From the NCBI GenBank assembly GCA_034185265.1, contig JAXFZD010000009.1, positions 3,558 through 67,557 of the forward strand: DNA of 64,000 nucleotides, given 5' to 3'. Positions 30,538 through 45,650 of this stretch are shown here, in pieces (the first letter of the stretch is position 1; each line of letters starts with the position of its first letter). The position numbers were made by a program, and so were the translations under genes. This DNA is from Bacilli bacterium. Its GTDB lineage: Bacteria; Bacillota_I; Bacilli_A; RFN20; CAG-826. The notes beneath the pieces were generated by a model. The model saw only the letters and a list, made by a program, of their open reading frames with translations, had not been told where the DNA came from and did not search any database.

Positions 30538-30599
30538 AATTCCCTCCTTCACTACTTATTTATTAATAAAAAGCAGTATTTTTCTAATATAACTAGACC

Positions 30600-30636
30600 A
30601 TTATACACGCGTGCGTGTCACAAAAGTGTCACAAAT
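30600..30636 (-). promoter_or_regulatory. Direct-repeat operator plus -10 box upstream of the surface-protein operon
   Basis: Plus strand: GTGTCACA (30615-30622) and GTGTCACA (30626-30633), 11-bp period. Gene sense: TGTGACAC-ttt-TGTGACAC, 9 nt, TATAAT (30605-30600). Confidence 0.7.
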
Positions 30637-30655
30637 TACTGTTAAAATTTAAAAT

Positions 30656-32173
30656 TTATTCTTCAACAAGTTCGCTTTCGTTATCTCCAGTATCTTTTTT
30701 AATTGTATAGAGGAAATAAATTAGGATTAATAGACCAATACATGAGAGTCCAATAATCTCAATAATTAATCCATCTAAAGCAAATTTAGAGTTCGGGAAC
30801 ACGTTATCAATTAGACCAACTATATCAACTCCTAAAATTAGTAGCGGCGCAACATATTTAATCATAAAAGCAAAAATAGTCGTGATTTTCCCTAGTCCTA
30901 AACCATCTTCTTCAAGTTTTTTAGCTAAAAACTTAAAGCTAAATAGCTCTTCTTTATTCGATGGCTTATACATAAACAAGCCTACAGATAAAGCAATAAA
31001 TAGCGCGGAAATAGGAATAAAAACTGAAGTAACTATTTGATCTAAAATCTCTAATAAACTTCGATTTCCTATGACCATAGTTGAACTATTATTTAGCGAA
31101 TAGCCTAGCGACATTCCTATAGGAATCGATATTAAAAAGATAAATGTAGCAACAATTAAACAAACTTTCTTTCTTTGTAATTTGTAGCGTTGAATTATGT
31201 ATTGAGCGACAACTTCTATTAAAGAAATTAACGAGGTAATCGCCGCAATCGCTACCATTCCAAAGAACAAGAAGGAAACAATTTTTCCTCCAATTCCTAA
31301 AGTATCAAATATCATTGGCATAGATTGGAAAAGCAAAGCAATTCCATTAACCTGCAAAGTTTGTCCAGTTTCAGCTTGATAGTGATATATAGCTGGGAAA
31401 ATAGCAAGTCCAGCAAGGAGAGCAACTAAAGTATCAAAAAAAGCGACCCACATAACGCATTTTCCGATCTTTACTTCTTTTCCTGAATAAGATCCATAAG
31501 CAAGTAAAGCTCCGACTCCAATAGAAATAGAGAAGAAAGCTTGACTCATCGCACTTAATATTCCTTTAGCTCCTAGGGCAGAAAAATCAGGATTTAGATA
31601 ATAATTTAGTCCTTCCCCAACTCCGCTCCCTAAGCACAAGCAGTAAATAACTATTCCAACTAAAATTACAATTAATGTCGGCATCAAAATCTTACTAGCT
31701 TTCTCAATTCCTTTTTTAACTCCAGCAGAAATAATAACCATGACTAGAGCTAAAAATATCCCAGAATAAAGAATTACTTCTCCAACATTTCCTGAAAAAG
31801 ACAGTAAATTCGTTGGAGTATCTGAGAAAGAATTTAGCGTGTATTTAACCGTATATCCGCCAATTACAACGTAATAAAAAGCTATTAAAAGAGCGGCAAC
31901 TATCGTAACTAATCCAACCCAACCAAGTTTTTTATTTATTTTTTTATAAGAAGTTACGTTATTTGCTTGAGCTCGTTTTCCAATAAAAATTTCTGCTACA
32001 GCTAAAGCTAAACCTAAAACAATTACGCTTAAGATGTAGACAATTACAAAGGCTGCCCCACCATTTTGACTGGTTTTATATGGAAAACTCCAAAGATTCC
32101 CTAGTCCAACAGAACCTCCAGCCGTAGCTAAAATAAACCCTATTCCACTACTAAACCCGTTTTTCTTCTTCAT
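30656..32173 (-). CDS. Sodium-dependent transporter, NSS/SNF family
   Basis: GFILATAGGSVGLGNLWSFPYKTSQNGGAAFV hallmark; about 12 TM segments. Confidence 0.85.
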   Translation of the reverse strand: MKKKNGFSSGIGFILATAGGSVGLGNLWSFPYKTSQNGGAAFVIVYILSVIVLGLALAVAEIFIGKRAQANNVTSYKKINKKLGWVGLVTIVAALLIAFYYVVIGGYTVKYTLNSFSDTPTNLLSFSGNVGEVILYSGIFLALVMVIISAGVKKGIEKASKILMPTLIVILVGIVIYCLCLGSGVGEGLNYYLNPDFSALGAKGILSAMSQAFFSISIGVGALLAYGSYSGKEVKIGKCVMWVAFFDTLVALLAGLAIFPAIYHYQAETGQTLQVNGIALLFQSMPMIFDTLGIGGKIVSFLFFGMVAIAAITSLISLIEVVAQYIIQRYKLQRKKVCLIVATFIFLISIPIGMSLGYSLNNSSTMVIGNRSLLEILDQIVTSVFIPISALFIALSVGLFMYKPSNKEELFSFKFLAKKLEEDGLGLGKITTIFAFMIKYVAPLLILGVDIVGLIDNVFPNSKFALDGLIIEIIGLSCIGLLILIYFLYTIKKDTGDNESELVEE

Positions 32174-32202
32174 AAAATTAAATTTACTTTTTTAAAATTA
32201 TA

Positions 32203-32218
32203 TTCTTCTTAAGAAGAA
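32203..32218. promoter_or_regulatory. Perfect 16-bp palindrome upstream of the NSS transporter
   Basis: TTCTTCTTAAGAAGAA, 30-45 nt upstream of the ATG at 32173. Confidence 0.35.
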
Positions 32219-32297
32219 ATTACTAAAAAAACTAAAAACTATTAACTAAAAATAAAAAGCTCCGCCAAATTTAACTTTAGTAGAGCTAATTTTTTAT

Positions 32298-34154
32298 TTA
32301 TTCAAATCTTTTTTTCAAGACAAGAATATTCTTATCGTTAATTCGATCATAAGCATATTCACTCATGATTTTCTTAACAATTACTAATCCTAATCCGCCT
32401 TCTTCAAAAGCTTTTCCTTCATCAAAAGTAGGATTATTTACAGCTAGTTGGTTGAATTCCTTTGCGTGATCAATGATTGAAATAACAAATTCGTTTTTGC
32501 CTTCATTGAATAGAAGTCTAACAAAAATATCTCCGCCTTTGTTTTGATATCCATGTCTAACTATGTTAGAAAGAAGTTCGTCTCCAACAATTAAAAGTTG
32601 GGTTATAAATTCTTCTGGGAAATTATGAAGATGACCAAAATCATCTATAAAAGATAGCATTTCTTCGATATTTTCTTGTTTTGCGTTAAACTTTCTTTCT
32701 TTATAAGTGTAACTTGTCCCTTGATATTTCATTGTTACAAAGGTTATATCATCGCTTTGAGGAGCATCTTTAACAAATTCACTTATATGATCTTTTATGG
32801 AATGATGGAGCTCAACTGTACAGGTGTAATCTTGCTTATTAAAAACTTTAAGAAATCGCTCCTCACCAAAGAAATCTCCACTAGAATTCCTAGCTTCAGT
32901 AATTCCATCTGTATATAAAGTTAGAGATTCTCCAGGTTTTAAGATAACTTCTTCATCTTTTAAGAAAGAATCTTTAAAGCATCCAAGTAAAAATCCTGAT
33001 CCACATTCAAGAAATCTATAATTTTGATTAGACCCAACTACTGGAGGATTATGTCCAGCGTTGCAATAAGCTACTTTTCCATTTCTTTTATCTAAAATCG
33101 CTAGGAAACAAGTAACGAACATGCTCGCTTTATTTCCTTTAAAAATAGAAGAATTAACTTCTCTTAAGATTTGAGAAGGAGATTTATTTGGTGCAGCAAA
33201 GTCTCTAAAAGAAGTTATAGTTTTCATCATAAACATTGCTGCAGGAACTCCTTTTCCTGAAACATCTCCAATTAAAACCGCGACATGATCTTCATCAATA
33301 TCTAAATAATCATAAAGATCTCCACCAACTTCTTTAGCAGCTTTAAGTTCCCCTACAATCTCAACTTCTTCACTATCAGCAAATTCTTCTGGAAGCGTAT
33401 TAAGTTGAATTTCTTTTGCAACGCTTAGCTCAGTTTTAGATTTTTCTTGTTCGTCATGGATTTTTATTTCGCTATCAAGAAGTTTATAAGTTCTTTTATT
33501 AAGTAAATTAGAGACCATGAAGAATAGCGTTATGATCATTGCTCTAGGGAAGAAATAATAAATTAAGACTTTTATATAGCGGTTATTTCCTTGAGCTTTT
33601 AGTGTGGCTATTAAATCTAATCTTTCCTGAAAAGTTTCGACTGTTCCTATAGTTCCATCAGGTTTAATTACGCCTCCCCCGAATAAATTCTCATCGAATT
33701 CTCCAAAAAACATCCCTAAATATAGACAAATAAGCATCGCTACAATAGAGATTAAATAAACTACTCTTCCAAATGTTGGATTATAGTAATGAGTCGCGAT
33801 TAATACAGCAAAAGGCCAGAATAACAGACTATGTTTAGGCAGCGCAATATTTAGTGCTATGATGACAATTAGTAAAGAAAGCAAAATAAAATATTTATAT
33901 CCAGGTCTTCTAATTAAACTAGTTTTAACTAAAAAAACAGGAATAAGCATTAATATTGAAATAAGAGGGAACATTATATTCACAGCGAGGAAGAAGTGAT
34001 CTGGGATAGTAAAAACCTTTGTGAGATATAAAACCCACATGATTAAAGCTAAAATGCCAGCTGCCATATTTACATATGACATGCATTTATTAGCGTCAGC
34101 TTCGTTTTCGTAATAAGCTCGCTGATATTCATTTTCTTGATTTTTTGTTGCCAT
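32298..34154 (-). CDS. Membrane-bound SpoIIE/PP2C phosphatase fused to an RsbW/SpoIIAB-like HATPase (anti-sigma-type Ser kinase) domain
   Basis: 618 aa. About 6 N-terminal TM helices. PP2C motifs GDLYDY, VLIGDVSGKGVPAAMFM, LYTDGITEA, QSDDITFV. C-terminal LLIVGDELLSNIVRHG and GGLGLVIVKKI. Confidence 0.75.
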   Translation of the reverse strand: MATKNQENEYQRAYYENEADANKCMSYVNMAAGILALIMWVLYLTKVFTIPDHFFLAVNIMFPLISILMLIPVFLVKTSLIRRPGYKYFILLSLLIVIIALNIALPKHSLLFWPFAVLIATHYYNPTFGRVVYLISIVAMLICLYLGMFFGEFDENLFGGGVIKPDGTIGTVETFQERLDLIATLKAQGNNRYIKVLIYYFFPRAMIITLFFMVSNLLNKRTYKLLDSEIKIHDEQEKSKTELSVAKEIQLNTLPEEFADSEEVEIVGELKAAKEVGGDLYDYLDIDEDHVAVLIGDVSGKGVPAAMFMMKTITSFRDFAAPNKSPSQILREVNSSIFKGNKASMFVTCFLAILDKRNGKVAYCNAGHNPPVVGSNQNYRFLECGSGFLLGCFKDSFLKDEEVILKPGESLTLYTDGITEARNSSGDFFGEERFLKVFNKQDYTCTVELHHSIKDHISEFVKDAPQSDDITFVTMKYQGTSYTYKERKFNAKQENIEEMLSFIDDFGHLHNFPEEFITQLLIVGDELLSNIVRHGYQNKGGDIFVRLLFNEGKNEFVISIIDHAKEFNQLAVNNPTFDEGKAFEEGGLGLVIVKKIMSEYAYDRINDKNILVLKKRFE

Positions 34155-34159
34155 TTTAA

Positions 34160-34453
34160 TTATAAAGTTTCAATTTTGATCATGTTTTGGAATCCGACCA
34201 TCTTGAAAATCTCATAGACTGGTTTAGGAGTATTAACTAAACTTGTGTCGTCGTATCTTTGTTTAATTCTTACAATAATTCTTAATCCAGCAGAAGAAAT
34301 GTAGCGAAGATCTTTTAGATCTAAAACTACTTTGCTTGGATTATTTGCAGCTAAAATAGCATCAATTTCTTCTTCCACTGCTTTAGAAGAAGATGAATTT
34401 AGTTCCCCTTCTAAAAATATAGTTAGAACATTATTTTCAAAAACATGTTTCAT
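34160..34453 (-). CDS. STAS-domain anti-sigma-factor antagonist (SpoIIAA/RsbV-like)
   Basis: 97 aa. VVLDLKDLRYISSAGLRIIV contains the conserved phosphorylatable Ser context. Confidence 0.8.
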   Translation of the reverse strand: MKHVFENNVLTIFLEGELNSSSSKAVEEEIDAILAANNPSKVVLDLKDLRYISSAGLRIIVRIKQRYDDTSLVNTPKPVYEIFKMVGFQNMIKIETL

Positions 34454-34465
34454 TTTTTTCTCCTT

Positions 34466-36646
34466 TTAAGCGTTATTATCTAATCTTTGTCTTTCGACTA
34501 ATTCAGCAAATTTGCCTTTTTTAGCAATTAAAGTCTCGTAATTGCCTTCTTCAATAATTTTACCACCTTCGAGCATAATAATTCTATCTGCTTTCATAAT
34601 TGTAGATAATCTATGGGCAATGACAATTCTTGTGCAGTTAAGTTTATCTATAGATTCGGTAATGCTCTTTTGAGTTTTGTTATCTAGAGCGCTAGTAGCT
34701 TCATCAAAAATAAGGATTTTAGGCTTATGAACAATTGCTCTAGCGATCATAATTCTCTGCTTTTGTCCTCCAGAAATGCCACCTTGTCCTTCACTAATTA
34801 CAGTTTTCATTCCCATCGGCATTTCTCTAATATCCTTAGCAATATCTGCGATTTCTGCAGCTTTCCAAGCGTCTTCTTCAGTTAAAGAAGGAGAAGAAAT
34901 AATTATGTTAGAGAAAATATCCGCGTGGAAAAGAGTTCCATTTTGCATGACTGTTCCTATATTTCTTCTTAAAGAAGTCAAGTCAACTTTATCTATATCG
35001 ATATCATCAAAATAAACTTTTCCTTCCAAAGGTTTTTCAAAACCTAATAGGATTCTAACTAAAGTAGATTTTCCACAGCCAGTTTGACCAACTATCGCAA
35101 TATATTCTCCTTGTTTAATATTTAAAGATAGGTTATCTAAAATTAGAGGTCCACTTTCTAAATATTTAAAGGTTACGTTATCTAATTTAATGTTTCCTTT
35201 AACTCCCTCTAGATGAATTTTTCCTTGGCTAGTCTCCGCCTGAGTTTCTAAAATTGGTCTAGCCATGTTATAAACTGGAGAAATCATCGTAAAGATTCCT
35301 ACCATAGAGACTAAGGAAGTAAAAGCTCCAGTTAAAACGCCATAGCTACTGGTAAAAGCCATGTAATTAGAAGCAGTTACGTTATTTTTTGCTGCTAAAT
35401 AATATATTGCTATATTCCCTAACAAGGTAATAAATAAAGAAATAGTCGTAGATAAACGAAGGATCATTGGTGGCTGATATTGAATTTTAGCCGCTCTAGC
35501 ATAGGCATTTGCCCATTTAGCAAACACTCTTTTTTCTGATCCAGATAATCTAATTTTCTGTATTCCGTTAATCATTTCATAAGTTACGCCAGCTTCTTTA
35601 GAAGATAATCTAAGATTTTTTTCTGTATATTTCTTTTGAATAAAGGAAATTGTTATCGTAAATGAAGAAGAAATAATTAGGATAAGCGCGACTGGAAGAA
35701 TTAAAACTGGAGCGAAAGAAATAAGTTGGAATAAGTAAGCTAAAGACATAACTACCGTGATTAAAGTAGTTAAAACGCTACTAACTATCATATTAGCTAG
35801 GCTGCTTATGCTAGCAAATCTAGCCGCTAATTCTCCAGTATTATATTTTTTAAAGAATGAAGTTGGTAAAGAAAGTACCTTCATCATCGCAGCTTTTTGC
35901 ACTTCTTTTTCAATTCGTAGAGATATTCGATTATTTACGTAACTTTGCATAGCGTTAGCTAAAAGCAGTCCAGTTGCAGTAGAAACTACATAAATCGAAA
36001 CTAAAATGAATAGTTTCATATCTTGACTAGAAACTACATTTCCAGTTAACCATCTAGTTAAATAAGGAAGAATCATTCCAATTCCTGTAGCTAAAGCGGA
36101 AAATAGCGCCAAGAAAAGCAAGTCTAGAGGTCTAATTGATTTGCGTAAATATTTCCAATATTCCTTGATTCCTACTTTTGTATTAGGAAGAGGTCTATAG
36201 AAACTTAGCGCTTCAAGTTCAAATTTATTAACTAAAGCAGCTTCGATATATTCTTTTTTTCCTGTGCTATAGTTAATGTAATAATATTTATCTTTTTTAG
36301 GGAATAGCACTACAGGAACTTCACTTAAAAAAGTAAAAAATAGAAGCGGAGTTCCATCTTCATTATTATAAGATTCATTAAGTTCAACTTTATGATAATA
36401 GATGTCACACTGACTTAAAACATAGTTAAGTTTATCGTTAAAAGAAGTAATTCCTTTAGGAATATCTATATTTTGACAGCGGAAATAAGAAAGAATTTGG
36501 TGAATAACAAAAGTATCTCTAATTTCTTCATCGCTTAGATTCTTTTTGTTATCAACTTTTAATCCAGCAAGCGACAAGAAAGAATCTTCGAAGGTTTTTT
36601 CATCGAGAGATTTTCTTTTCTTTACTTGCTCTTCAAACCAGCCCAT
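34466..36646 (-). CDS. ABC transporter permease/ATPase (NHLM/NHPM bacteriocin-system type, no peptidase domain)
   Basis: 726 aa. About 160-aa N-terminal domain, 6 TM, GQTGCGKST Walker A, ISGGQKQR signature, ILIFDEATSALD. Confidence 0.8.
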   Translation of the reverse strand: MGWFEEQVKKRKSLDEKTFEDSFLSLAGLKVDNKKNLSDEEIRDTFVIHQILSYFRCQNIDIPKGITSFNDKLNYVLSQCDIYYHKVELNESYNNEDGTPLLFFTFLSEVPVVLFPKKDKYYYINYSTGKKEYIEAALVNKFELEALSFYRPLPNTKVGIKEYWKYLRKSIRPLDLLFLALFSALATGIGMILPYLTRWLTGNVVSSQDMKLFILVSIYVVSTATGLLLANAMQSYVNNRISLRIEKEVQKAAMMKVLSLPTSFFKKYNTGELAARFASISSLANMIVSSVLTTLITVVMSLAYLFQLISFAPVLILPVALILIISSSFTITISFIQKKYTEKNLRLSSKEAGVTYEMINGIQKIRLSGSEKRVFAKWANAYARAAKIQYQPPMILRLSTTISLFITLLGNIAIYYLAAKNNVTASNYMAFTSSYGVLTGAFTSLVSMVGIFTMISPVYNMARPILETQAETSQGKIHLEGVKGNIKLDNVTFKYLESGPLILDNLSLNIKQGEYIAIVGQTGCGKSTLVRILLGFEKPLEGKVYFDDIDIDKVDLTSLRRNIGTVMQNGTLFHADIFSNIIISSPSLTEEDAWKAAEIADIAKDIREMPMGMKTVISEGQGGISGGQKQRIMIARAIVHKPKILIFDEATSALDNKTQKSITESIDKLNCTRIVIAHRLSTIMKADRIIMLEGGKIIEEGNYETLIAKKGKFAELVERQRLDNNA

Positions 36647-36657
36647 CTATCCCTTTC

Positions 36658-38841
36658 CTATTCATTAGTAACTAACTCGTAATAATAGCCTTTTAAGCTC
36701 ATTAACTGCTCATGGTTTCCTTGTTCAACTATATGTCCTTTATTTAAAACTACGATTAAATCTGCATCTCTAATCGTAGAAAGTCTATGCGCTATGACAA
36801 TAGTTGTAATTCCTCTATGCTTAATTGCTTCAACTACATCAAATTCAGTTTTTGCATCTAGCGCACTAGTTGCTTCATCTAAAATTATTATGCTAGGATC
36901 GCTAGCTAAAGATCTAGCAATCTCTAATCTTTGCTTTTCTCCGCCAGAAAAATTCTTTCCTCCTTCTAGAACTGGAGCATTATATCCGCCATCTCTAGAT
37001 TCAATCATTTTATGAATTTGCGCATCGTTACAGGCTAAAATAACTTCGTAATCCTCGATGGTTTCATCCCACATCTTAAGATTATTCATGATTGTATCTT
37101 CGTATAAAGTTATGTCTTGATCGACTACAGCAATAGAAGAAGTAAATATCTCGTGATCAATTTCTTCTATTTTCTTTCCATCAAATATAATCTCGCCTTC
37201 CCAAGGAGAATATAAACCTGAAATTAACTTAGATAATGTTGATTTTCCGCTTCCTGTAGAGCCAACAATCGCTACTTTTTGACCTTGCTTAATCTCTAAA
37301 TTAAAGTTACTTAAAACAGGTTGATCTAATCTAGAATAACCAAAAGTAATGTTTTTTAAAATAAGGTTCCCACTTATTTTAGAAATCTCTCCTCCTTCAA
37401 TCACTCTAGTTACATTTTTATCTAAAGGATATTCTAAAACATCATCAACTCTTTCCATCGAAGTACGCATTTCTTGAAGAGTTTGTCCGCTGCTAATTAA
37501 AGTCATTGCTGGAGACATAAATGATCCTAATAAACCTTGGAAAGCTAAAATAGAACCGATTGTAAATTCGCCTTTTATTGTGTAATAAACTCCTAAAATT
37601 AAAACGCCATAATTAGCAAGTAAAGACACAAAAGCAGGTAAAAGACCTAGGAATTGATTAGTTTTTGCCATTTTTATTCTTTGAGTAAACACATTATCTT
37701 GAGCTTCACTCCAAGAATCAAAATAAGCTTCTTCAGCTCCGTTGGATTTAATTGTTTCAACCATTTCTATTCCTTTAGAAGTCATAGAAGCAAGTCTAGA
37801 TTTATCCCTAGCTTGAACTCTAGAAATGTTGACTCTAACTTTAGAAATATATTGAGAAAGTAAAGCATTTATCACGATAGTTACTACGCCAACTAAAGTT
37901 AAAATCCAGCTCTTGTTGATCATGACAACTAGATAAACAACAATCATTATTGTGTTAAATAGTAACGGAGCCAAGACATTGACTAAAGTTTCAGCAATCG
38001 AAGCATTCTCACTTCTTCTACCTTGCAAATCTCCTACCATTCTTTGAGAGAAGAACTCTATAGGAAGTCGTAAGATCCTCCACATATAAGTCGTGGAGCC
38101 TATTAAATCTAATTTTCCTTTAATCTTATACGAATATAAGGTTTGAACTAAGCTGACAAGAACTTGAAGTAAACCTATTCCAGCAAAAATCAAAATGAAA
38201 GGAAGCAGCCACTCAGGGTTTTTTCCTCCAAGAAGATGGTCGACAAAAACTTGGTTAATTACAGGAGAAATTATGCTAAATAAATAAGCAATGATTGTAG
38301 TTATTGCAAAGAAAGCTATTAAAGCAACCGCACCTTTGAGTCGTTTTCTTGCAAAGGTGAGAATTGATTTTCTTTTACCTCCAGGAACAAATCCTTCATC
38401 AGGAGTAATTTCAAGATAAACTCCAGTAAAAATCTTATCAAAAGTTTCTAAATCCACTTTAACTAGTCCTTTTGCTGGATCATTTAAGATAGCTTTATTA
38501 CCTCTAAAACCATTTAAAACTACGAAATGGCCTCCGCCCCAATGGATAATTGCAGGAAATTTTCCTAATTCCTTTAATTTTGTGATATTTCTTGCATATC
38601 CAGTTGCTTTAAATCCATATTTCCTTGCTGCAGCGCAGATATTTTTTGCATTAGCTCCGTTTCTAGAAACTCCGCAATCAACTCTAACTTGCTCTAAGGC
38701 AACCCATTTTCCATAGTAAGCCATGATCATAGCTAAAGAAGCCGCTCCACATTCAAGAGCTTCTAACTGCATGATTATCGGAGTATTCGCTACTCCTTTT
38801 CCTGTTTTTGGCTTCTTTATCTCGCTCATTTTATTTTCCAA
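36658..38841 (-). CDS. Bacteriocin/RiPP export ABC transporter with N-terminal C39 peptidase domain
   Basis: QLEALECGAASLAMIMAYYGKWV (C39 catalytic Cys region), 6 TM, GSTGSGKST, FSGGEKQR, IIILDEATSALD. Confidence 0.85.
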   Translation of the reverse strand: MENKMSEIKKPKTGKGVANTPIIMQLEALECGAASLAMIMAYYGKWVALEQVRVDCGVSRNGANAKNICAAARKYGFKATGYARNITKLKELGKFPAIIHWGGGHFVVLNGFRGNKAILNDPAKGLVKVDLETFDKIFTGVYLEITPDEGFVPGGKRKSILTFARKRLKGAVALIAFFAITTIIAYLFSIISPVINQVFVDHLLGGKNPEWLLPFILIFAGIGLLQVLVSLVQTLYSYKIKGKLDLIGSTTYMWRILRLPIEFFSQRMVGDLQGRRSENASIAETLVNVLAPLLFNTIMIVVYLVVMINKSWILTLVGVVTIVINALLSQYISKVRVNISRVQARDKSRLASMTSKGIEMVETIKSNGAEEAYFDSWSEAQDNVFTQRIKMAKTNQFLGLLPAFVSLLANYGVLILGVYYTIKGEFTIGSILAFQGLLGSFMSPAMTLISSGQTLQEMRTSMERVDDVLEYPLDKNVTRVIEGGEISKISGNLILKNITFGYSRLDQPVLSNFNLEIKQGQKVAIVGSTGSGKSTLSKLISGLYSPWEGEIIFDGKKIEEIDHEIFTSSIAVVDQDITLYEDTIMNNLKMWDETIEDYEVILACNDAQIHKMIESRDGGYNAPVLEGGKNFSGGEKQRLEIARSLASDPSIIILDEATSALDAKTEFDVVEAIKHRGITTIVIAHRLSTIRDADLIVVLNKGHIVEQGNHEQLMSLKGYYYELVTNE

Positions 38842-39220
38842 TTACAAAATCAAACGGCTTCATTTCCTTTATAACAACAGTGTAAACATATTCTCCATCG
38901 CTTAGTTCCATAGAAGAAACTATTGGAGATCCATCGTCTTTAAAAGAAAGGATTTCCCCTGCTTTATCAACAATATAAACTTTCTGCCCTACTGCTAACT
39001 GACTTCTAGAAGATTTATCCACATTTAACGTAACTTCGTTATTAGAAATTAAAGCAGTTCCAGTTATCTTAATTGCAATTTTATAAACCATAGACCAAAC
39101 AAAAAAAGAGATAAGAACAGCAGTTATCGCTCCTAAAACTATCCAAGTAACTGGAGAAGTATATTGCAGATGCTTATCTAATTCATCTGGACTAGAAATA
39201 GTTTTTGGTCGTTTTTTCAT
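38831..39220 (-). CDS. Short HlyD-like secretion adaptor (single TM + barrel-sandwich fragment)
   Basis: 129 aa. N-terminal TM TWIVLGAITAVLISFFVW. Overlaps the ABC gene by 11 nt. The position matches the adaptor gene of NHLM-type export systems. Confidence 0.5.
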   Translation of the reverse strand: MKKRPKTISSPDELDKHLQYTSPVTWIVLGAITAVLISFFVWSMVYKIAIKITGTALISNNEVTLNVDKSSRSQLAVGQKVYIVDKAGEILSFKDDGSPIVSSMELSDGEYVYTVVIKEMKPFDFVIGK

Positions 39221-39254
39221 AAAATATAGAAATAATTATATCATTGATATAATT
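39221..39254 (-). terminator. AT-only hairpin between the maturase and exporter genes (possible attenuator or processing site)
   Basis: AATTATATC-att-GATATAATT (39234-39254), followed on the minus strand by ATTATTTCTATATTTT. Confidence 0.25.
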
Positions 39255-39281
39255 TGAGAAAAGTTATTATCTTCTCTATTT

Positions 39282-40676
39282 TTATAAATCTAGAGGTTTA
39301 CTTAAGTGTAAAAAGTTTAAAGTAGAGGTAACTTTTTCATACCAGCCATTTTCAAAGAATATACATTTTGTAATATCTTCGTGATAGAAATTAATGTCTT
39401 TAGAATAAAGAAGCCCTAAAGCCGGGCAGCCTCCGTTACAAACTTTATAATATTTACAATTTGCACATTTATCATTCTCTACAATCTGCTTAAATAGTGG
39501 CGCCATCGCTAGATTTAGATATTCACTTTCTGTAACTAACTGCTTTAGCGGAGTCTTAGTTACATTCCCTAAACTTATTTTATGTTCTAAGAAATATCCT
39601 GACATTTGTAAACAAGGAACGACTTCTCCACTAGAAGAAACCGCGATCATTCCTCTATTTCCTTTACACATTGGAATTCTAATATTAAATTCATCTTTAG
39701 AACAAGCAATAGGAACTAGAGAATAAATTTTATGTTTAGGATCAAGTCTAATAAACTGCCAAATATCGACGGTCATTTTCATATTTGAAGAAGCATAGAA
39801 CTTAGAAAATTCCAGCATTCTTTCATAATATTCTTCTATAGGTAGAGTTGAATCAGGAGAATTCTTTTCCCATCTAGGTGCTTCTGTAGTTCTAATAATT
39901 CTCATTTCTAAAACTCCCATCTCATTTAATAAAGAGGCAGTTTTCATCATCACATCTACATTTTTACGGTTACATTGAACTTGAGCTTTTACATCAAATC
40001 CGTTATCTATACATAATTTAATAGCTTTTAAAGTAAGTTCTTCTGCTTTAGGATGCTGTCTAATAATGTTATGATAGCCGACTCCATCAAAAGATATTTT
40101 TATTAAAGGATTGCAGCCTAATCTTTTGAATTCATCTAACATTTTTTGAGTTAAAAGAAGTCCATTTGTATTTAACTCAAAAATCATCATTTCTCTTTCA
40201 TAAATAGCTCTAACTATATCTAAAAAGCGAGGATGAACTAAAGGTTCTCCTCCCGTAAGAGTAAAGGCATGAACTCCGATATCTCTAGCTTGATCTAGGA
40301 TATCTAGAATTTGTTCGTAAGTTAATTCACTATTAAGCGGAGCGTTATCTTTTGCATTGAAACAGTGCAGACAATTTAAGTTGCATTTTCCTGTAATCAT
40401 TAGATTCATTCGAGGAAAATAGTAGTTTTCGTATTCTTTTAATTTTGACCAAGAAGAGGGCTCTTCTCCTTGGTTACATTCTTCAATTACTCCTCTAGAA
40501 AGAAATTTAGAAAGAAGCTTCGAAGGTTCTAAGTCATGATTTCCGTCACATAGACAAAGTAATTCAAAATCTTCTTTAGGAATGCTAAAAGCGCGATCAT
40601 TACCTTTTACATAAATCGCGCGTTCAACGTACTTCCACTTTCGTAGAGCAATATGTTCATTTAATCTATAGTACAT
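39282..40676 (-). CDS. Radical SAM/SPASM-domain peptide maturase with N-terminal RRE-like (PqqD-like) region
   Basis: ITGKCNLNCLHCFN (CxxxCxxC), C-terminal Cys clusters ..PMCKG.. and CANCKYYKVCNGGCPA (SPASM), N-terminal FELLCLCDGNHDL..LSRGVIEE. Confidence 0.85.
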   Translation of the reverse strand: MYYRLNEHIALRKWKYVERAIYVKGNDRAFSIPKEDFELLCLCDGNHDLEPSKLLSKFLSRGVIEECNQGEEPSSWSKLKEYENYYFPRMNLMITGKCNLNCLHCFNAKDNAPLNSELTYEQILDILDQARDIGVHAFTLTGGEPLVHPRFLDIVRAIYEREMMIFELNTNGLLLTQKMLDEFKRLGCNPLIKISFDGVGYHNIIRQHPKAEELTLKAIKLCIDNGFDVKAQVQCNRKNVDVMMKTASLLNEMGVLEMRIIRTTEAPRWEKNSPDSTLPIEEYYERMLEFSKFYASSNMKMTVDIWQFIRLDPKHKIYSLVPIACSKDEFNIRIPMCKGNRGMIAVSSSGEVVPCLQMSGYFLEHKISLGNVTKTPLKQLVTESEYLNLAMAPLFKQIVENDKCANCKYYKVCNGGCPALGLLYSKDINFYHEDITKCIFFENGWYEKVTSTLNFLHLSKPLDL

Positions 40677-40679
40677 TTA

Positions 40680-40871
40680 TTAATTTTCAAGTTTTCTGCG
40701 ATTATTTTTAGTAGATGCACTGCAGCCTCCACCATTTACTGCATCGAGTTGCTCATCAGTTAAAGTTACATCTTCATCTTTTGCAAGTTGGATTAAGTCA
40801 CTTACGTTTTCACATGCTTTTGCTTTTTCAATTTGTTCTGGGGTTAAACCTTTAAATAAATCTTTTTTCAT
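40680..40871 (-). CDS. RiPP precursor peptide with a Nif11-type leader and double-glycine cleavage motif
   Basis: MKKDLFKGLTPEQIEKAKACENVSDLIQLAKDEDVTLTDEQLDAVNGG-GCSASTKNNRRKLEN. ATG at 40871 with AAGGAG RBS. The 20 extra N-terminal codons in the ORF track overlap the operator and promoter. Confidence 0.75.
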   Translation of the reverse strand: MKKDLFKGLTPEQIEKAKACENVSDLIQLAKDEDVTLTDEQLDAVNGGGCSASTKNNRRKLEN

Positions 40872-40896
40872 GATATTAGCTCCTTTACATGATTTT

Positions 40897-40930
40897 ATTT
40901 TATCAAAATGGGTGTCACAGAAGTGCCACA
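40897..40930 (-). promoter_or_regulatory. Direct-repeat operator plus -10 box upstream of the precursor/maturase/exporter operon
   Basis: Plus strand: GTGTCACA (40912-40919) and GTGCCACA (40923-40930), 11-bp period. Gene sense: TGTGGCAC-ttc-TGTGACAC, 9 nt, TAAAAT (40902-40897). Confidence 0.7.
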
Positions 40931-40939
40931 CTTATAATT

Positions 40940-42133
40940 TTATTTATTTTCTTTACTTGCTAATTTATCTAGAGAGGATTTTTGCTGAGCATAAATTTCC
41001 ATAGCAAAATCTAAAACATCATCTTTAAAGAACTCACTTTTCCCTAATATTTCTCTAATTGTAGATTCAAAACCTATTAAATTATCTTTGTTATACCACG
41101 AATAATCCCATTCCGGATCAAGGTTTCCATAAGCAAAATAAATTAAAAGAAGGGTAGATTTACCGCGATTTTGGATAAAATTCTTCGCAGTTCCACTAGT
41201 CCCAAAAGAACCTCCTAGATCATAAATAGGAGCAATTCTAAGTTCTCCACTATTCATATTTTTAATCATAGAAATGTTATCAAAATGAAGATCGTTAATA
41301 AAACATAGAGACCTTAAACACGCTATCTTAATAAAGAAAAGATAAAGATCTTTATAGCCTTGGTCTAATAGGTTACTTAAGAACTTTTTATGGTTATTCC
41401 TATCTAATTTAATATTTAAATATTGCTTATAAAATTCAAGAGGGAGAACGTTAGAAAGAGGAATTAAAACTTCATCTAACCCAATCATAGGAGAACTTAC
41501 TGAAGCATATTTGCCATAAATTACTTCTAAATCATGCCCAACTACTTCTTCTTCCTTTAATAATTTTTTAGCTAATTTAGAAGCTAAAACTTCTCCTAAA
41601 ACTTCATCAGAATTATTTTGTATACCTAATTTATATAATCTAGGACCTTTTTCTAAGTCATATAGCCAGCCTTTAACTCCCCAACCTGCTGTAGCAATAT
41701 CAGGAACTTCTAAGCTAACTTTAGATAAAGCTGCGTAATTTTCTTTTATAACTTCTCTAGCAAAAGAATCATCCCACTTATTAGAAAAGAAATTTATATC
41801 CTTATAAGATAAGTTTTCTCCTTCTTTTTTAAACCAGTAATGATTAGACAGCGATAATCCATGTCCTTTAAAAAGGAGATTAAATCCGCTTTTACAGTGA
41901 GTTGCTTTTAGAATTTCTCTATATCCTTTTCTAGTTACAGGAATGGCCTGCTTAGAAAAAAACCATTTTATTTTGTTATCTAAAGAATCTTCATTATCTA
42001 AAAATCCATAAGGAGCTTTGTCAAAATACTCTTTCTTTTCGATAAACTTGACTTCTTTTTTTCTTAAATCAACAGTAAAAGAAAGAACTTCGTAATCCTT
42101 ATACATTAAAATATAGATTGTTTTTTTGCTCAT
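40940..42133 (-). CDS. HipA-like Ser/Thr kinase-fold protein
   Basis: 397 aa. INDLHFDNISMI (DxHxxN catalytic-loop-like) and RIAPIYDLGGS (APxYD-like). Confidence 0.55.
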   Translation of the reverse strand: MSKKTIYILMYKDYEVLSFTVDLRKKEVKFIEKKEYFDKAPYGFLDNEDSLDNKIKWFFSKQAIPVTRKGYREILKATHCKSGFNLLFKGHGLSLSNHYWFKKEGENLSYKDINFFSNKWDDSFAREVIKENYAALSKVSLEVPDIATAGWGVKGWLYDLEKGPRLYKLGIQNNSDEVLGEVLASKLAKKLLKEEEVVGHDLEVIYGKYASVSSPMIGLDEVLIPLSNVLPLEFYKQYLNIKLDRNNHKKFLSNLLDQGYKDLYLFFIKIACLRSLCFINDLHFDNISMIKNMNSGELRIAPIYDLGGSFGTSGTAKNFIQNRGKSTLLLIYFAYGNLDPEWDYSWYNKDNLIGFESTIREILGKSEFFKDDVLDFAMEIYAQQKSSLDKLASKENK

Positions 42134-42164
42134 TAATTAAAAATAAAAATTCCTTTATAGGCTT

Positions 42165-42198
42165 AATTTAACATTATCGATGCCACAAAAGTGCCACA
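42165..42198 (-). promoter_or_regulatory. Direct-repeat operator plus -10 box upstream of the HipA-like gene
   Basis: Plus strand: ATGCCACA (42180-42187) and GTGCCACA (42191-42198), 11-bp period. Gene sense: TGTGGCAC-ttt-TGTGGCAT, 9 nt, TAAATT (42170-42165). Starts 3 nt after the RR stop codon. Confidence 0.65.
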
Positions 42199-42201
42199 AT
42201 A

Positions 42202-42963
42202 TTAATAATCTGCATCAAAAATAGGCCATGAATATTGCATCATGTATTCTCCTCGATACATTCTTATTGCATCAGGATTTCCTTTTTTATATTCATAAGC
42301 ATCGCAATCAACTTTTGATGTATCTATATAACATTCGTTATGCCTTTTAATAAATACATCAGGGAAACCAGCTTTATTTAAAGTATTTTGTATATCGGCG
42401 ATTAAATTTCTTAAATAGGATGGATGATCTTCTTCCCACAAAACAGCATTTAATTCATTTACATTAATTGCTGAACCTTCTCTATCTACCAAATAAGCGA
42501 AAGCCTCTTTTGATTTTTTATAAGAGAATTTTAAAGGCTCTCCATTACAGAAAACTTCAAAATTACCGAAACATTTTATTTGTAATTTATTAGATTGTTT
42601 AAGTTCAATTTTCTTTCCTAATTCATCAATTTCTTCTTTTATCTTAGATTCATTAACGGGTTTAGTAATGTATCCAGAAGCATGAACCTTAAAAGCTTCT
42701 AAAGCATATTCGTTATAAGCTGTTACGAAAATAATCTTAGTTAGTGGATTCAATTTTTTAAGTTTCTTTGCAAGCTGAATTCCATTTAACCCAGGCATTT
42801 CAATGTCTAGAAATGCCACATCAATTTTATTTTCTTTTGCTTCTTCAAACGCTTTAACTGGATTTGAAAAAGAAACTAATTCTGCATCAGGCAGCACTTT
42901 TTTGCAGGAATTAACAAGTCTTAGAAGCTGCAACTCTTCATCATCTACAAGTAAAATAGTCAT
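42202..42963 (-). CDS. Two-component response regulator: receiver domain + OmpR/SARP-type winged-helix DNA-binding domain
   Basis: ILLVDDE..AFLDIEMPGLNG..IIFVTAY (receiver). LQIKCFGNFEVFCNGEPLKFSYKKSKEAFAYLVDREGSAINVNELNAVLWEE (SARP/Trans_reg_C-like). Confidence 0.8.
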   Translation of the reverse strand: MTILLVDDEELQLLRLVNSCKKVLPDAELVSFSNPVKAFEEAKENKIDVAFLDIEMPGLNGIQLAKKLKKLNPLTKIIFVTAYNEYALEAFKVHASGYITKPVNESKIKEEIDELGKKIELKQSNKLQIKCFGNFEVFCNGEPLKFSYKKSKEAFAYLVDREGSAINVNELNAVLWEEDHPSYLRNLIADIQNTLNKAGFPDVFIKRHNECYIDTSKVDCDAYEYKKGNPDAIRMYRGEYMMQYSWPIFDADY

Positions 42964-42965
42964 AA

Positions 42966-44231
42966 TTATCCTTTATAAAATTTTATCACTGCTTTAGCTC
43001 CTTTTCCAACCTCACTAGTGATAATTAAATCTCCATGGCACATAGTATGCAATCTATGCTTTATATTATTTATTCCAAAATGTTTATTTTGTTCAAAACC
43101 AACATCATTCATATCAAAACCAACTCCGTCATCTGTGATTTCCACTACGTAAGCATCTGAGGTTTCGTATGTTTTAAAGGTAACTGTTCCGCCTTCTATT
43201 TTCTTTAAAACTCCATGTTTTATCGCATTTTCTACGACAGGTTGAATACTTAGAGGAGGAACATTAAAGTCTCTTATTTTTATGTCGTAAACTATATTAA
43301 CACGATCATTAAATCTCATTTTTTCTAATGAAACGTAGGTTTCAATATGTCTTAACTCATCTTCAAAAGGAATTAACTTTGTCTCGGTTAATGAAGATAA
43401 ATTGTGTCTTAAATATTCTGTGAAATCATCGAGTTCTTGCTGAGCTTTTTCTGGATCAAGAATTATTAAAGAAGAGATGGCAGACAAGGAATTATAGATA
43501 AAATGGGGTTGAATCTGGGACATCATAATTCTTATTTGGGCATCCTTATTTTTCTCTTGTTCTTCAGCTAACTGAATATTTTTAGATACATTAACAAAGA
43601 AGAAAAGTATTTCGATAGCAATAATAATCGATGTATAAGCAATTGCATAGCCTGGTAGACTAATTTGGACAATAATTGCAACTAAAGGAAGTAAACAATA
43701 ACAGACAAAAGCCACTTTTTCTCTAATTACCAATTTCTTATTAAATAAAGTTGTAAATAGAACTATCGTAAGCATGATAAATTGATATCCTTGCGCAATA
43801 AACATTATTTTAACACGTACGTATTCCCCGTTTTCTGCTGTAAAGAACATGCGAGTAAAAATGTTAATAATGCATAAAAGGACAGAAATTGAAAATAAAG
43901 AAACATTTATGAGTGATAATATTTTCTTAGTTTTTAAGGCTTGTTCGAGATAAGTTAACGTATATAAAGCAAATAGCAATACTTCAATATTATTAAATAT
44001 GTAAAAAATCGTATAAAAGCTCATTACATATGCATTGCTTGTATAAACAATTTTGATCAACGTAAAAGTTAAATATGTTGCTAAATGAAACGCAGTAAAA
44101 GAAAGAAATAGTAAAAGTCTGCTCTCGTCTTTTCTTTTATTTTTTTTGAGTAGCAAATTAACGATATGAATGAGGAATATTGCGATTCCTATTGTACAAA
44201 CTGTTATGTTGAATATTACGTTTTCTGGCAT
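42966..44231 (-). CDS. Polytopic sensor histidine kinase, LytS/YehU-type (His_kinase + HATPase_c)
   Basis: 6-7 N-terminal TM helices, QIQPHFIYNSLSAISSLI (PF06580-type H-box), VENAIKHG, DDGVGF, GINNIKHRL. Confidence 0.85.
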   Translation of the reverse strand: MPENVIFNITVCTIGIAIFLIHIVNLLLKKNKRKDESRLLLFLSFTAFHLATYLTFTLIKIVYTSNAYVMSFYTIFYIFNNIEVLLFALYTLTYLEQALKTKKILSLINVSLFSISVLLCIINIFTRMFFTAENGEYVRVKIMFIAQGYQFIMLTIVLFTTLFNKKLVIREKVAFVCYCLLPLVAIIVQISLPGYAIAYTSIIIAIEILFFFVNVSKNIQLAEEQEKNKDAQIRIMMSQIQPHFIYNSLSAISSLIILDPEKAQQELDDFTEYLRHNLSSLTETKLIPFEDELRHIETYVSLEKMRFNDRVNIVYDIKIRDFNVPPLSIQPVVENAIKHGVLKKIEGGTVTFKTYETSDAYVVEITDDGVGFDMNDVGFEQNKHFGINNIKHRLHTMCHGDLIITSEVGKGAKAVIKFYKG

Positions 44232-44255
44232 GTTTTTAACTAATTTAAATTTTAA

Positions 44256-44942
44256 TCAAATAAATTTAACTACAAAATTGCTTACACTGCTATTTTTATC
44301 TACTTCAATTTTACCTTTATTTAATATTTCAACTAGCCAGAGAGGAATAGAATGTTTAACCTTAATTTCTAAAATGGCTTCACCTTCTTCTAATAAAGGA
44401 TTTCCATCAAAAGAAGAATGGAGGTTTAAATCGTTAACTCTATAACGAGGATTCATATCTAGAGTTACTCTTATATCTGAATTTTCTTGATAGAAAGCCA
44501 TTCTATCGTAGATGATAAGGATTTTTGGTTCTAATTCACCGTATTTTTCCCTAAAGCCTTCAAGTTCTCTAGAGATTTGGCTTTGGTCGAAATTTACTCC
44601 ACTATCTAAGAATGAATATGCTTTTTCTTCACTCGTCATAATTCTTCTTTTATACACTATCTTGTCATTCTTTCTTTTAATTTCTAAGAAGACTGGAGAA
44701 TCTATCTTTGCTAAGCCATAGCTTCTTAGTCTAATTTTTTCTTTGAAGAATGGTTTTTCAATAGATTTTCTAATCAAAAAATAGTTAGGAGTATCGAAAT
44801 AAATGGAACTAATGGAAGTAAGACCATATTTATCTAACTTAAGGTAAGAAGATACTTCATTTAAGAAATATTGGACTTGTTCCTTATTTAAACAATACTT
44901 TAATTCGTATCTTTTCATTACGGATATGATTTCTTTTTTCAT
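44256..44942 (-). CDS. VTC-domain (CYTH-like, polyphosphate-polymerase-type) protein
   Basis: MKRYELKYCL..ISSIYFDTPNYFLIR..KIRLRSYG..LEIKRK pattern. Lies 24 nt upstream of the HK gene on the same strand. Confidence 0.65.
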   Translation of the reverse strand: MKKEIISVMKRYELKYCLNKEQVQYFLNEVSSYLKLDKYGLTSISSIYFDTPNYFLIRKSIEKPFFKEKIRLRSYGLAKIDSPVFLEIKRKNDKIVYKRRIMTSEEKAYSFLDSGVNFDQSQISRELEGFREKYGELEPKILIIYDRMAFYQENSDIRVTLDMNPRYRVNDLNLHSSFDGNPLLEEGEAILEIKVKHSIPLWLVEILNKGKIEVDKNSSVSNFVVKFI

Positions 44943-45083
44943 TTAATTTCTCCTCCTTTTCGAGAATATAGTAAAAGATGAACCTTAAATTAAACTTAAA
45001 TGAAATTAGATTTTTTATTTTTTCTTTATATATCTTTATTAAGAAATATAGACATTTAGCGAAAATATTTTAAAATATGCGCT

Positions 45084-45650
45084 ATGTCAGAAAAGGCTCG
45101 TATTAGGTATTTTTCGATAAAGTTCGTTATTTTTACTTTTCTAGGAATAATGATCCTTGTTTTTAGGGAATCACATGTTGGAAATTTAAGATACTTTATT
45201 GGTGGATTAATGCTTATTTACGGAGTAGAAGGAATTTTCTACGAATCCTTAGAGCACCACTTAAATTTCATGATGAAAAATAGGACTTATCTTGGAATAG
45301 TCGAAATAATTTTTGGTGTCACACTACTTGCTTCTAATATCTCATTCGAAAGTGTTTGCATAATATGGGCAACTTGGTCGATTATTAGAGAGTCGTATGA
45401 ACTAAAAGAAATTGTATGTGACTTTAAATGTTATACTCCTAGAATTCTAAGCTTACTCGAATCAATCGCAGCTATTGTCTTCTCAATTATGTTGATATTA
45501 GAGCCGGGTCGTCATCATGCTTTACTTCATATAATATTGTTAAATATTGAATTAATATGCTCTCCTCTTGTTGTTCTATTAGATGAAATAATCATCGCTA
45601 TTAAGAAGAAAAGAAAAAAAGCAATAGAAATCGAAAAAGAAGAAAAATAA
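45084..45650 (+). CDS. Integral membrane protein (about 5-6 TM), function unknown
   Basis: 188-aa hydrophobic ORF with a Lys/Glu-rich tail. Confidence 0.55.
   Translation: MSEKARIRYFSIKFVIFTFLGIMILVFRESHVGNLRYFIGGLMLIYGVEGIFYESLEHHLNFMMKNRTYLGIVEIIFGVTLLASNISFESVCIIWATWSIIRESYELKEIVCDFKCYTPRILSLLESIAAIVFSIMLILEPGRHHALLHIILLNIELICSPLVVLLDEIIIAIKKKRKKAIEIEKEEK

Follow-up and report, generated by a model that had tools for sequence, protein, structure and literature searches.

The 64-kb window analysed here, the whole of the stretch presented above (contig JAXFZD010000009.1), carries a gene cluster organised around a 63-aa precursor peptide and, just downstream of it, a radical S-adenosylmethionine (rSAM)/SPASM enzyme; the genes concerned are all encoded on the minus strand. 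The cluster is genuine, so far uncharacterised and widespread among rumen bacteria; it very probably makes, modifies and exports a tiny peptide with one Cys. An earlier note on this DNA had recognised in it a cluster for a peptide made by ribosomes and modified after translation (RiPP) and had delimited it at 34466-42133. This span is too narrow: the functional unit is wider on both sides, with a histidine kinase and a response regulator at one end and a STAS protein and a PP2C protein at the other. The order common to about 40 Bacilli loci is histidine kinase, response regulator, 397-aa HipA-like kinase, precursor, rSAM enzyme, short HlyD, ABC1, ABC2, one or two STAS proteins, and finally a membrane PP2C (SpoIIE) fused to an RsbW-like HATPase. 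In the window, the genes between precursor and PP2C follow one another with gaps of 3, 61, -11, 11, 12 and 5 nt, and a terminator scan found no convincing terminator between these genes; over 30300-45200, generic scans for promoters and terminators counted no more sites than shuffled sequence would give, none of them informative.

The precursor gene (40680-40871, read from 40871 to 40680) encodes a 48-aa Nif11-like leader ending in GG, MKKDLFKGLTPEQIEKAKACENVSDLIQLAKDEDVTLTDEQLDAVNGG, followed by a 15-aa core, GCSASTKNNRRKLEN, and a Shine-Dalgarno sequence, AAAGGAG, stands 8 nt upstream of its start codon. The core has a single Cys, a net charge of +3 and no aromatic residue. Exactly 3 nt (TAA) separate the precursor stop from the ATG of the rSAM gene; the corresponding gap is of 2–31 nt in 16 related loci, and of 2–4 nt in 7 loci. 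When the leader is compared with each of 7 orthologues, 10 to 17 of its 48 codons differ only synonymously, which indicates that the gene is under selection at the protein level. The small open reading frame (ORF) with its GG-ending leader, the short, basic core devoid of aromatics and the 3-nt spacing, all put forward in the earlier note, thus hold.

A tblastn search with the leader retrieved 22 short-core precursors adjoining rSAM genes. All 22 cores possess exactly one Cys, at position 1 or 2 after GG and usually followed by Ser, Thr or Asp; this Cys is the sole residue invariant across them. Most of them (17 of the 22) end with [KR][KR][ILFY][DE][SDNK], e.g. RKIES, RKFDS and RRIDS, the window core ending with RKLEN. 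The middle of the cores is hydrophilic and varies in length and sequence, while the net charge ranges from -2 to +4. Two near-identical relatives display the same leader with the cores GCSASTKKNRRKLES and GCSGSTSIKHRKIES, which end ...KKNRRKLES and ...SIKHRKIES. Further leader or zinc-ribbon peptides were searched for in the 64 kb and only the short precursor was found, so that the local export and sensing machinery would serve this peptide.

The attribution of the leader to the Nif11 type deserves a nuance. The window peptide itself matches neither Nif11 model (TIGR03798, PF07862) at E <= 1, but 17 of 25 related precursors match TIGR03798 (best 2e-8) and 18 of 25 match PF07862 (best 9e-5): "Nif11-like", as proposed earlier, is right at the level of the family and not for this member taken alone. 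The family is large. Whereas a word-index protein search with the precursor returned 3 proteins, a leader profile built from 4 sequences and run against 1.84 billion representatives (E <= 0.001) returned 2,146 clusters at 50 % identity. We parsed 143 representatives from the best 150 of these clusters: the first Cys falls 0–2 residues after GG in 110 of them, 69 have zinc-ribbon-like cores, and in 48 the core is shorter, lacks a ribbon and has its Cys early. A good many of these 48 are of the short hydrophilic type, whose members end with (G)H[RP]KI[ED][SN] or with P[IV]xNP[FY].

The second ending occurs in P0281, P0314, P0327, P0351, P0356, P0361, P0372 and P0334; P0334 bears both terminal motifs (P[IV]xNP[FY] and HRKI[ED][SN]) in tandem, and P0376 (GGHPKILD) seems intermediate. 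A sub-branch of the leader family (M.F.DLTPEQ.EKA.ACK...; P0312, P0346, P0371, P0326, P0384 and P0243) has very short Trp/Tyr-rich cores such as TWYDCMNETW, NWINCLNETW and FWDGCDLCDLGYGSGH, which are probably substrates of other enzymes.

Many related loci contain a second kind of precursor, with the same leader and the early Cys, but with a zinc-ribbon-like core of about 45 aa (CPxCG...CxxCG). Up to 5 copies are present in Bacilli loci and 12 in one Ruminococcus locus, against none in the window (examples: L012 485-2109; L005 4546-5826; L001 88-683 and 3667-3957; L036 846-4098 and 11661-13188, the L numbers designating individual related loci).

The rSAM/SPASM enzyme (39282-40676, 464 aa) was characterised with Pfam and an AlphaFold2 (AF2) model. 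It contains the motif C98-x3-C102-x2-C105, whose three Cys are invariant in 28 homologues, and matches PF04055 (1.8e-22) and the SPASM domain PF13186 (2.2e-8), in agreement with the CxxxCxxC/SPASM enzyme announced by the earlier note. Eight further Cys are invariant (C325, C337, C355, C404, C407, C413, C417 and C438, in the pattern CX12GX4C...CX2CX5CX3C...C) and provide the set expected of the ligands of two auxiliary clusters. The AF2 model (pLDDT 78.6) finds its best fold matches in SkfB (1.9e-15, 423 columns) and SuiB (7e-15, 475 columns), to be compared with the 464 residues of the query; anSME, PqqE and TigE come next, and the epimerase EpeE is also among the matches. The identity to any solved maturase is only 13–17 %, and a sequence search of the PDB gave weak matches, the best being SkfB with 36 bits.

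Residues 1–67 of the model form three strands and two helices (beta-beta-beta-alpha-alpha), as in recognition elements, and since the SuiB and SkfB alignments extend over nearly the full length of the query they probably cover this N-terminal domain. The PqqD-like element suggested by the earlier note is only partly confirmed: the modelled fold is compatible with it, but a PqqD sequence signature was sought and not found. Taken together, these features let us confidently consider the enzyme as an rSAM/SPASM maturase of the RiPP type.

Downstream, the cluster encodes a truncated HlyD-like membrane protein of 129 aa (38831-39220; positions 2–65 of TIGR03794, E = 3.9e-9) with one transmembrane (TM) segment predicted from hydropathy at residues 27–45. 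It is followed by a C39-peptidase/permease/ATPase exporter of the NHLM ABC1 type (36658-38841; TIGR03796 836 bits, PF03412 5.5e-32) and a second ABC permease/ATPase of the NHLM ABC2 type (34466-36646; TIGR03797 665 bits). The active-site motifs of the C39 domain, QLEALECGAASL and GGGHFVVL, which carry the catalytic Cys and His, are present. None of the three proteins attains its NHLM equivalog cut-off (36 vs 156 bits for TIGR03794, 836 vs 853 for TIGR03796 and 665 vs 709 for TIGR03797), the two ABC proteins being near misses and HlyD being truncated; the set is nonetheless of the NHLM type, as the earlier note had proposed. The leader end ...AVNGG, together with a C39-peptidase ABC exporter, corresponds to what is expected for double-glycine export. 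A leader-bearing precursor coupled to an rSAM/SPASM enzyme with the fold of RiPP maturases, then to a C39-ABC export set, upholds the RiPP interpretation of the earlier note: the product is very probably an exported, rSAM-modified RiPP.

The promoter regions bring a further element. The direct repeat TGTGRCA-N4-TGTGRCA, 7 nt long with an 11-bp period, occurs in exact form three times in the window, each time on the minus strand, while 0.45 matches would be expected even with two mismatches allowed. One copy, TGTGGCACTTCTGTGACA then TTTTGATAAAAT (40913-40930), precedes the precursor; another, TGTGGCACTTTTGTGGCA then GATAAT (42181-42198), precedes the HipA-like gene; the third, TGTGACACTTTTGTGACA then TATAAT (30616-30633), precedes a surface-protein operon. 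In each case the -10-like hexamer comes 2–10 nt after the box. Related loci contain a further 29 exact copies, of which 28 share the strand of the genes; they stand ahead of short-core precursors, of other leader-bearing, mostly zinc-ribbon, precursors (several of these genes carry it), of HipA-like genes, of HlyD-ABC genes and of a STAS gene. The box stands before the short-core precursor in 10 related loci (L001, L007, L010, L011, L015, L017, L018, L019, L024 and L029) and before the HipA-like gene in four (L012, L013, L017 and L053). Since the boxes precede the precursor, the HipA-like gene and the surface-protein operon, and recur at corresponding places in relatives, they point to one regulon with an autoregulated peptide gene, and thereby support the signalling idea. 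The operon downstream of the third box encodes a 1066-aa lipoprotein (27352-30552; lipobox LVSC, Listeria-Bacteroides repeat) and a 1572-aa surface protein (22603-27321; Chlamydia-PMP and Cna-B repeats, C-terminal TM anchor), both probably members of the same regulon.

A two-component system adjoins the cluster and is syntenic in relatives. The sensor histidine kinase (42966-44231; PF06580 His_kinase 2.5e-22, PF02518 HATPase_c) has about six N-terminal TM segments between residues 9 and 215, according to hydropathy. The response regulator (42202-42963) combines a receiver domain (PF00072, 3.9e-24) with a C-terminal DNA-binding domain whose 127 aa have no Pfam match, to LytTR or any other family. 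The NCBIfam VanR-B and PhoB-type alignments reach residues 180–206 and DrrB (1p2f) aligns with residues 44–188; the similarity of this C-terminal domain to the OmpR/PhoB type is weak, and the domain is probably a winged helix. An 11-bp-period direct repeat overlapping the -35 region is the type of site that a winged-helix response regulator would bind, and the adjacent regulator is the candidate for that role. The earlier note had supposed a signalling peptide rather than an antimicrobial: this supposition gains support from the adjacent two-component system and from the conserved direct-repeat box before the precursor.

Between the response regulator and the precursor, a 397-aa ORF (40940-42133) lies within the span of the earlier note and had received no description there. 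Alone, it has no Pfam or NCBIfam match (HipA_C gives 15.5 bits for a gathering score of 30.5). Nevertheless its AF2 model (pLDDT 88.7) has as top Foldseek matches HipA, with 4pu5 (9e-10) and 3dnt (TMq 0.59–0.60), then CtkA; PF07804 (HipA_C) weakly matches 25 of 30 homologues; and D281, H283, N286 and D305, i.e. the catalytic D-x-H-x-x-N loop and the Mg-binding Asp, are invariant. On the strength of this modelled fold and these residues it is a HipA-like Ser/Thr kinase-fold protein, with about 240 homologues, all in this clade. We looked for a HipB/HipS-type antitoxin and found no small helix-turn-helix gene beside it, its upstream neighbour being the response regulator; a classical toxin-antitoxin pair was thus rejected.

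At the other end, a STAS protein resembling anti-sigma antagonists (34160-34453; TIGR00377 62.7 bits for a cut-off of 53.45, PF01740) begins 12 nt after ABC2, and a membrane PP2C/RsbW-kinase fusion (32298-34154; PF07228 (SpoIIE) 2.5e-51, PF13581 HATPase_c_2 2e-18; about five TM segments; position kept in relatives) begins 5 nt after the STAS gene. On account of these short gaps, both apparently belong to the exporter operon. The STAS gene follows ABC2 in most relatives, and directly follows the rSAM gene in Clostridia loci. No sigma factor gene was noticed next to the pair. At the opposite extremity, a VTC-domain protein (44256-44942; PF09359 5e-38) ends 24 nt upstream of the start of the histidine kinase, with which it may be co-transcribed.

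The rSAM enzyme has more than 1,700 homologues, nearly all unnamed, and in one-genome-per-species data it is present in 59 loci. Most of these belong to rumen metagenome-assembled genomes labelled Bacilli, Erysipelotrichaceae or Bacillales (65–82 % identity); the remainder (51–57 %) come from the cultured Butyrivibrio proteoclasticus P18, from Ruminococcus and Lachnospiraceae, and from one Treponema bin. The Clostridia and P18 enzymes (51–56 % identical) are located after a LanM of about 900 aa and long Nif11-leader precursors, which also start GG-(x)-C (cores GG-KC-NGST...), and ahead of genes for STAS, a membrane PP2C and an RsbW-like kinase that here is a separate protein. This LanM-type arrangement occupies L056 4990-9413 in P18 and is also found in L037, L038, L040, L041 and L048. 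The rSAM clade thus appears to occur in two architectures, and the partner-switching genes accompany it in both. The P18-type locus combines, in a cultured strain, a lanthipeptide cluster, an rSAM tailoring enzyme and a partner-switching module. Near-identical bacterial-type loci were also seen in an archaeal bin (L027, labelled Methanomethylophilaceae archaeon) and in a spirochaete bin (L048, Treponema sp.); contamination during binning or horizontal transfer is the likely origin.

The spacer between the rSAM and HlyD genes was described by the earlier note as containing an AT-only hairpin. The inverted repeat (39234-39254) does exist, as a perfect 9-bp stem with a 3-nt loop, AATTATATC-AAT-GATATAATT, but one C:G pair makes it not strictly AT-only. 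It lies ahead of the export genes and overlaps a TGATATAAT box. The 76-nt rSAM-HlyD spacer folds at -13 kcal/mol with z = -2.28, which is modestly better than shuffles. An attenuator or a terminator was rejected: there is no U-run, the stability is weak and the hairpin overlaps the conserved TGATATAAT.

In relatives the same spacer usually shows an evident terminator first, followed by a palindrome and, ahead of the HlyD gene, by TGATATAAT. The palindrome, TAGATTG-N(3-12)-CAATCTA, occurs once per locus in 8 relatives, between the post-rSAM intrinsic terminator and TGATATAAT (L002 9427-9448, L007 9445-9466, L011 9446-9468, L012 8169-8192, L013 6242-6264, L016 2543-2565, L017 9777-9798 and L033 9426-9446), and may be a second operator. 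We looked for it in the window spacer and did not find it; the spacer keeps AATGATATAAT, which is the right arm of the hairpin. Because the overlapping TGATATAAT box is conserved in relatives, the feature at 39234-39254 is more likely promoter DNA, i.e. an internal promoter or operator of the export genes in which TGATATAAT would likely be an extended -10, than an RNA hairpin.

From this gene content, motifs, synteny, shared promoter boxes and pattern of core conservation, which are observed, we propose the following mechanism. The N-terminal domain of the rSAM/SPASM enzyme would bind the 63-aa precursor at its Nif11-like leader, and the enzyme would then modify the 15-residue core. Most likely it would form one thioether that joins the invariant Cys, placed two residues after GG, to a carbon elsewhere in the core; the favoured acceptor region is the conserved acidic/hydrophobic motif at the C-terminus, RK[L/I]E[N/S]. 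The C39 domain of ABC1 would cleave after the double glycine, and ABC1, ABC2 and the truncated HlyD would export the small hydrophilic product. Once outside, the peptide would most likely act as a pheromone sensed by the polytopic histidine kinase. The phosphorylated response regulator would bind the TGTGRCA-N4-TGTGRCA boxes and turn on three units: the precursor/maturase/export/STAS/PP2C operon, thereby closing a positive feedback, the HipA-like gene and the surface-protein operon.

The layout is that of an induction peptide, in that a small hydrophilic peptide, the only one exported, shares a regulator box with other operons and is flanked by a polytopic kinase and a regulator; by analogy, its outputs would be zinc-ribbon peptides in the relatives and surface proteins in the window. 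As a reading of the whole system, i.e. a self-contained, autoregulated rSAM-RiPP whose product is a signal, we give this proposal a probability of about 0.5, a figure that does not apply to all its steps jointly. Its parts differ in strength. We lean slightly towards a product that is primarily a signal, while a thioether on the Cys falls a little short of even odds.

Several observations weigh against the proposal. As regards the chemistry, the enzyme matches the generic rSAM and SPASM domains but attains the cut-off of no other NCBIfam or Pfam family. In NCBIfam it scores highest with AhbD 104, ScmE 95, NirJ-type 89–90, DynA 87, WgkB 82, StsB 74.5, PapB 72.4 and anSME 69.7 bits, all far below the respective cut-offs, so that the thioether formers (cut-offs of 625 bits for StsB and 340 for PapB) and anSME score no higher than AhbD, DynA and WgkB, and there is no PqqD Pfam match in 28 family members. 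Besides, the Cys lies at about 8–18 residues from the C-terminal motif depending on the core, which is unusual for a crosslink of fixed ring. As regards the substrate, in 8 related loci the rSAM gene is intact and a short-core precursor is not beside it, and the N-terminal Cys is common to the zinc-ribbon precursors, so that the enzyme may serve other substrates.

As regards the signal, the links from kinase to peptide and from regulator to boxes are drawn from neighbourhood and motifs. The families of the kinase and regulator differ from those of known peptide-pheromone systems: instead of an HPK10-type kinase with a LytTR regulator, we find a PF06580 kinase (LytS-type) and a regulator that is not LytTR. 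On the other hand, the kinase and regulator do adjoin a GG-leader peptide and its exporter, and a shared direct repeat does precede the peptide gene and other operons, as in three-component systems. A comparison of the sensor with the catalytic halves of the kinase and the PP2C, made in search of pherotype-like divergence, gave a difference (59 vs 66 % and 60 vs 71 % identity) that is small and not decisive.

Since no curated cut-off is reached and thioether formers are not favoured, the chemistry of the enzyme is a guess. Its reaction is not readable from the sequence, and the best, if tentative, proposal is that the invariant Cys forms one thioether. The earlier statement that one Cys allows at most one thioether is plausible in this respect, but the enzyme sequence gives it no preference over other radical SAM chemistries. 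Another reaction, such as the epimerisation of the conserved Leu, Ile or Phe in RK[ILF]E, a C-C or C-O crosslink, or the conversion of Cys to formylglycine, with a different role for the Cys, is possible without being probable. It would account for the indifferent sequence scores, the presence of anSME and of the epimerase EpeE among the fold matches, the conservation of the hydrophobic residue in the C-terminal motif and the eight post-barrel Cys, compatible with fully ligated auxiliary clusters. It leaves aside, however, that the Cys is invariant in 22 of 22 cores and enriched family-wide, and that most cores lack the aromatic residues used by the known C-C and C-O crosslinkers.

The enzyme could also be a tailoring enzyme whose main substrates are larger peptides with the leader, of the zinc-ribbon or LanM-modified type and encoded at other sites, in which case the short ORF would be a truncated derivative or a decoy: the 8 loci devoid of an adjacent short-core gene, the N-terminal xC[ST] start common to short cores and zinc-ribbon precursors, and the position of the Clostridia/P18 enzymes go in this direction. 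We hold it to be quite improbable, given that the short cores own a conserved C-terminal motif, that the leader is under purifying selection, that 7 loci show the 2–4-nt coupling and that the window has no second leader peptide.

The function of the product raises a similar discussion. GG leaders, like NHLM/C39-ABC export sets, are characteristic of bacteriocins, some related loci possess up to 5–12 further leader-bearing peptides, like an arsenal, and the closest fold match, SkfB, makes a killing factor; the product could accordingly be a bacteriocin-type antimicrobial RiPP, the two-component system regulating its production or immunity. Yet the 15-residue core is entirely hydrophilic, with no aromatic or amphipathic segment, the charge of its orthologues extends from -2 to +4, a small membrane protein resembling an immunity protein is absent from the operon, the 64 kb encode this one leader peptide only, and the promoter of the precursor carries the regulator box as those of induction peptides do. 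An antimicrobial is thus unlikely. Finally, the rSAM-STAS adjacency, kept even in distant Clostridia loci, might be taken to mean that the enzyme matures a protein of the STAS/PP2C module and that the small ORF is incidental, so that no RiPP is made. This is hardly credible in view of the N-terminal RRE-like (RiPP recognition element) domain, of the whole-length fold similarity to RiPP maturases, and of a Nif11-type GG leader coupled to both the enzyme and a C39 exporter.

Compared with known systems, the locus shares with the sacti- and ranthipeptides (SkfB/SkfA, CteB/thermocellin, PapB/freyrasin, QhpD) an rSAM/SPASM (or twitch) maturase, a probable N-terminal leader-recognition domain and an adjacent Cys precursor, SkfB being the top match of the window enzyme by both sequence and fold. 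SKF has a single thioether; PapB and QhpD link Cys to Asp or Glu, and this acceptor type is conserved near the C-terminus of the short cores. By contrast, the maturase is only 13–17 % identical to any solved one and scores below every NCBIfam cut-off including those of StsB and PapB; the precursor is not SCIFF-like and has one Cys just after the cleavage site, behind a Nif11-type leader, and the spacing from Cys to putative acceptor is variable in the short-core family.

In layout close parallels are the three-component regulons of competence and of class II bacteriocins (pln, blp and com), built from an induction peptide, a histidine kinase and a response regulator. There too a C39-ABC transporter exports a short GG-leader peptide, a kinase and a regulator lie next to it, and one direct repeat stands before the peptide gene and other operons; the multiple co-regulated larger GG-leader peptides are likewise found in the relatives of the window. 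In the window, however, a radical SAM enzyme is coupled to the candidate pheromone, the kinase belongs to the PF06580 family and the regulator is non-LytTR, the 7-nt repeat has an 11-bp period, and a HipA-like kinase would belong to the regulon together with a STAS/PP2C partner-switching pair. The locus resembles the three-component pheromone regulons in layout, not in protein families.

The NHLP/Nif11 leader-NHLM export systems (Haft, Basu & Mitchell 2010, BMC Biol 8:70, as cited in PMC7268733) provide the Nif11-like GG leader and the trio of HlyD, C39-ABC and second ABC exporter. The window differs by export proteins below the equivalog cut-offs, an HlyD of only 129 aa, a short, divergent Nif11 variant of the leader that the models miss, and an unclassified rSAM partner; moreover the hosts are rumen Bacilli rather than cyanobacteria or proteobacteria. 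The quorum-sensing-linked RaS-RiPPs of streptococci, streptide, tryglysin and streptosactin (review PMC9389541), are likewise small rSAM-modified peptides of host-associated Firmicutes tied to cell-cell signalling, and SuiB is the second-best fold match. There the RiPP is the output of shp/rgg signalling, whereas here the modified peptide is the candidate signal for a two-component system, and the precursor, leader and export types are all different. As far as homology and gene order allow one to judge, the system would work like a sacti-/ranthipeptide-type rSAM RiPP with Nif11/NHLM export, outside every curated maturase family.

In the searchable literature, which leaves most subscription journals uncovered, we found no account of this cluster, so that an earlier description is possible; nor did we find there any report of HipA-like kinases in RiPP loci or of secreted zinc-ribbon GG-leader peptides. 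No member of the enzyme or leader family seems to be characterised, and almost all are unnamed, most coming from rumen metagenomes. New rSAM RiPP families are found often; what distinguishes this one is its abundance in the rumen, an explicit and testable regulatory circuit, and three unusual partners.

A broader and more doubtful extension would be a widespread rumen quorum sensing of a new type, in which an rSAM-crosslinked Nif11-leader pheromone would be read by a LytS-type kinase and a winged-helix regulator. The regulon, marked by the TGTGRCA-N4-TGTGRCA boxes, would take in surface proteins or zinc-ribbon GG-leader peptides, the membrane PP2C/STAS partner switch, and a HipA-like kinase that may act in growth arrest; the crosslink, of an undescribed type, would join the Cys adjacent to the cleavage site to a distant HRKI(E/D)(S/N) motif.

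Whatever the fate of this extension, the promoter box offers an immediate and testable route to the mapping of the regulon. If the product is indeed an rSAM-modified pheromone, the cluster would provide radical SAM peptide chemistry with a new class of substrate and possibly a new crosslink. It would tie RiPP biosynthesis to modules that are unusual in RiPP clusters, namely a HipA-like kinase, a STAS/PP2C partner switch and zinc-ribbon leader peptides, and it would open a chemical route to the way in which the uncultured Bacilli of the rumen signal from cell to cell.

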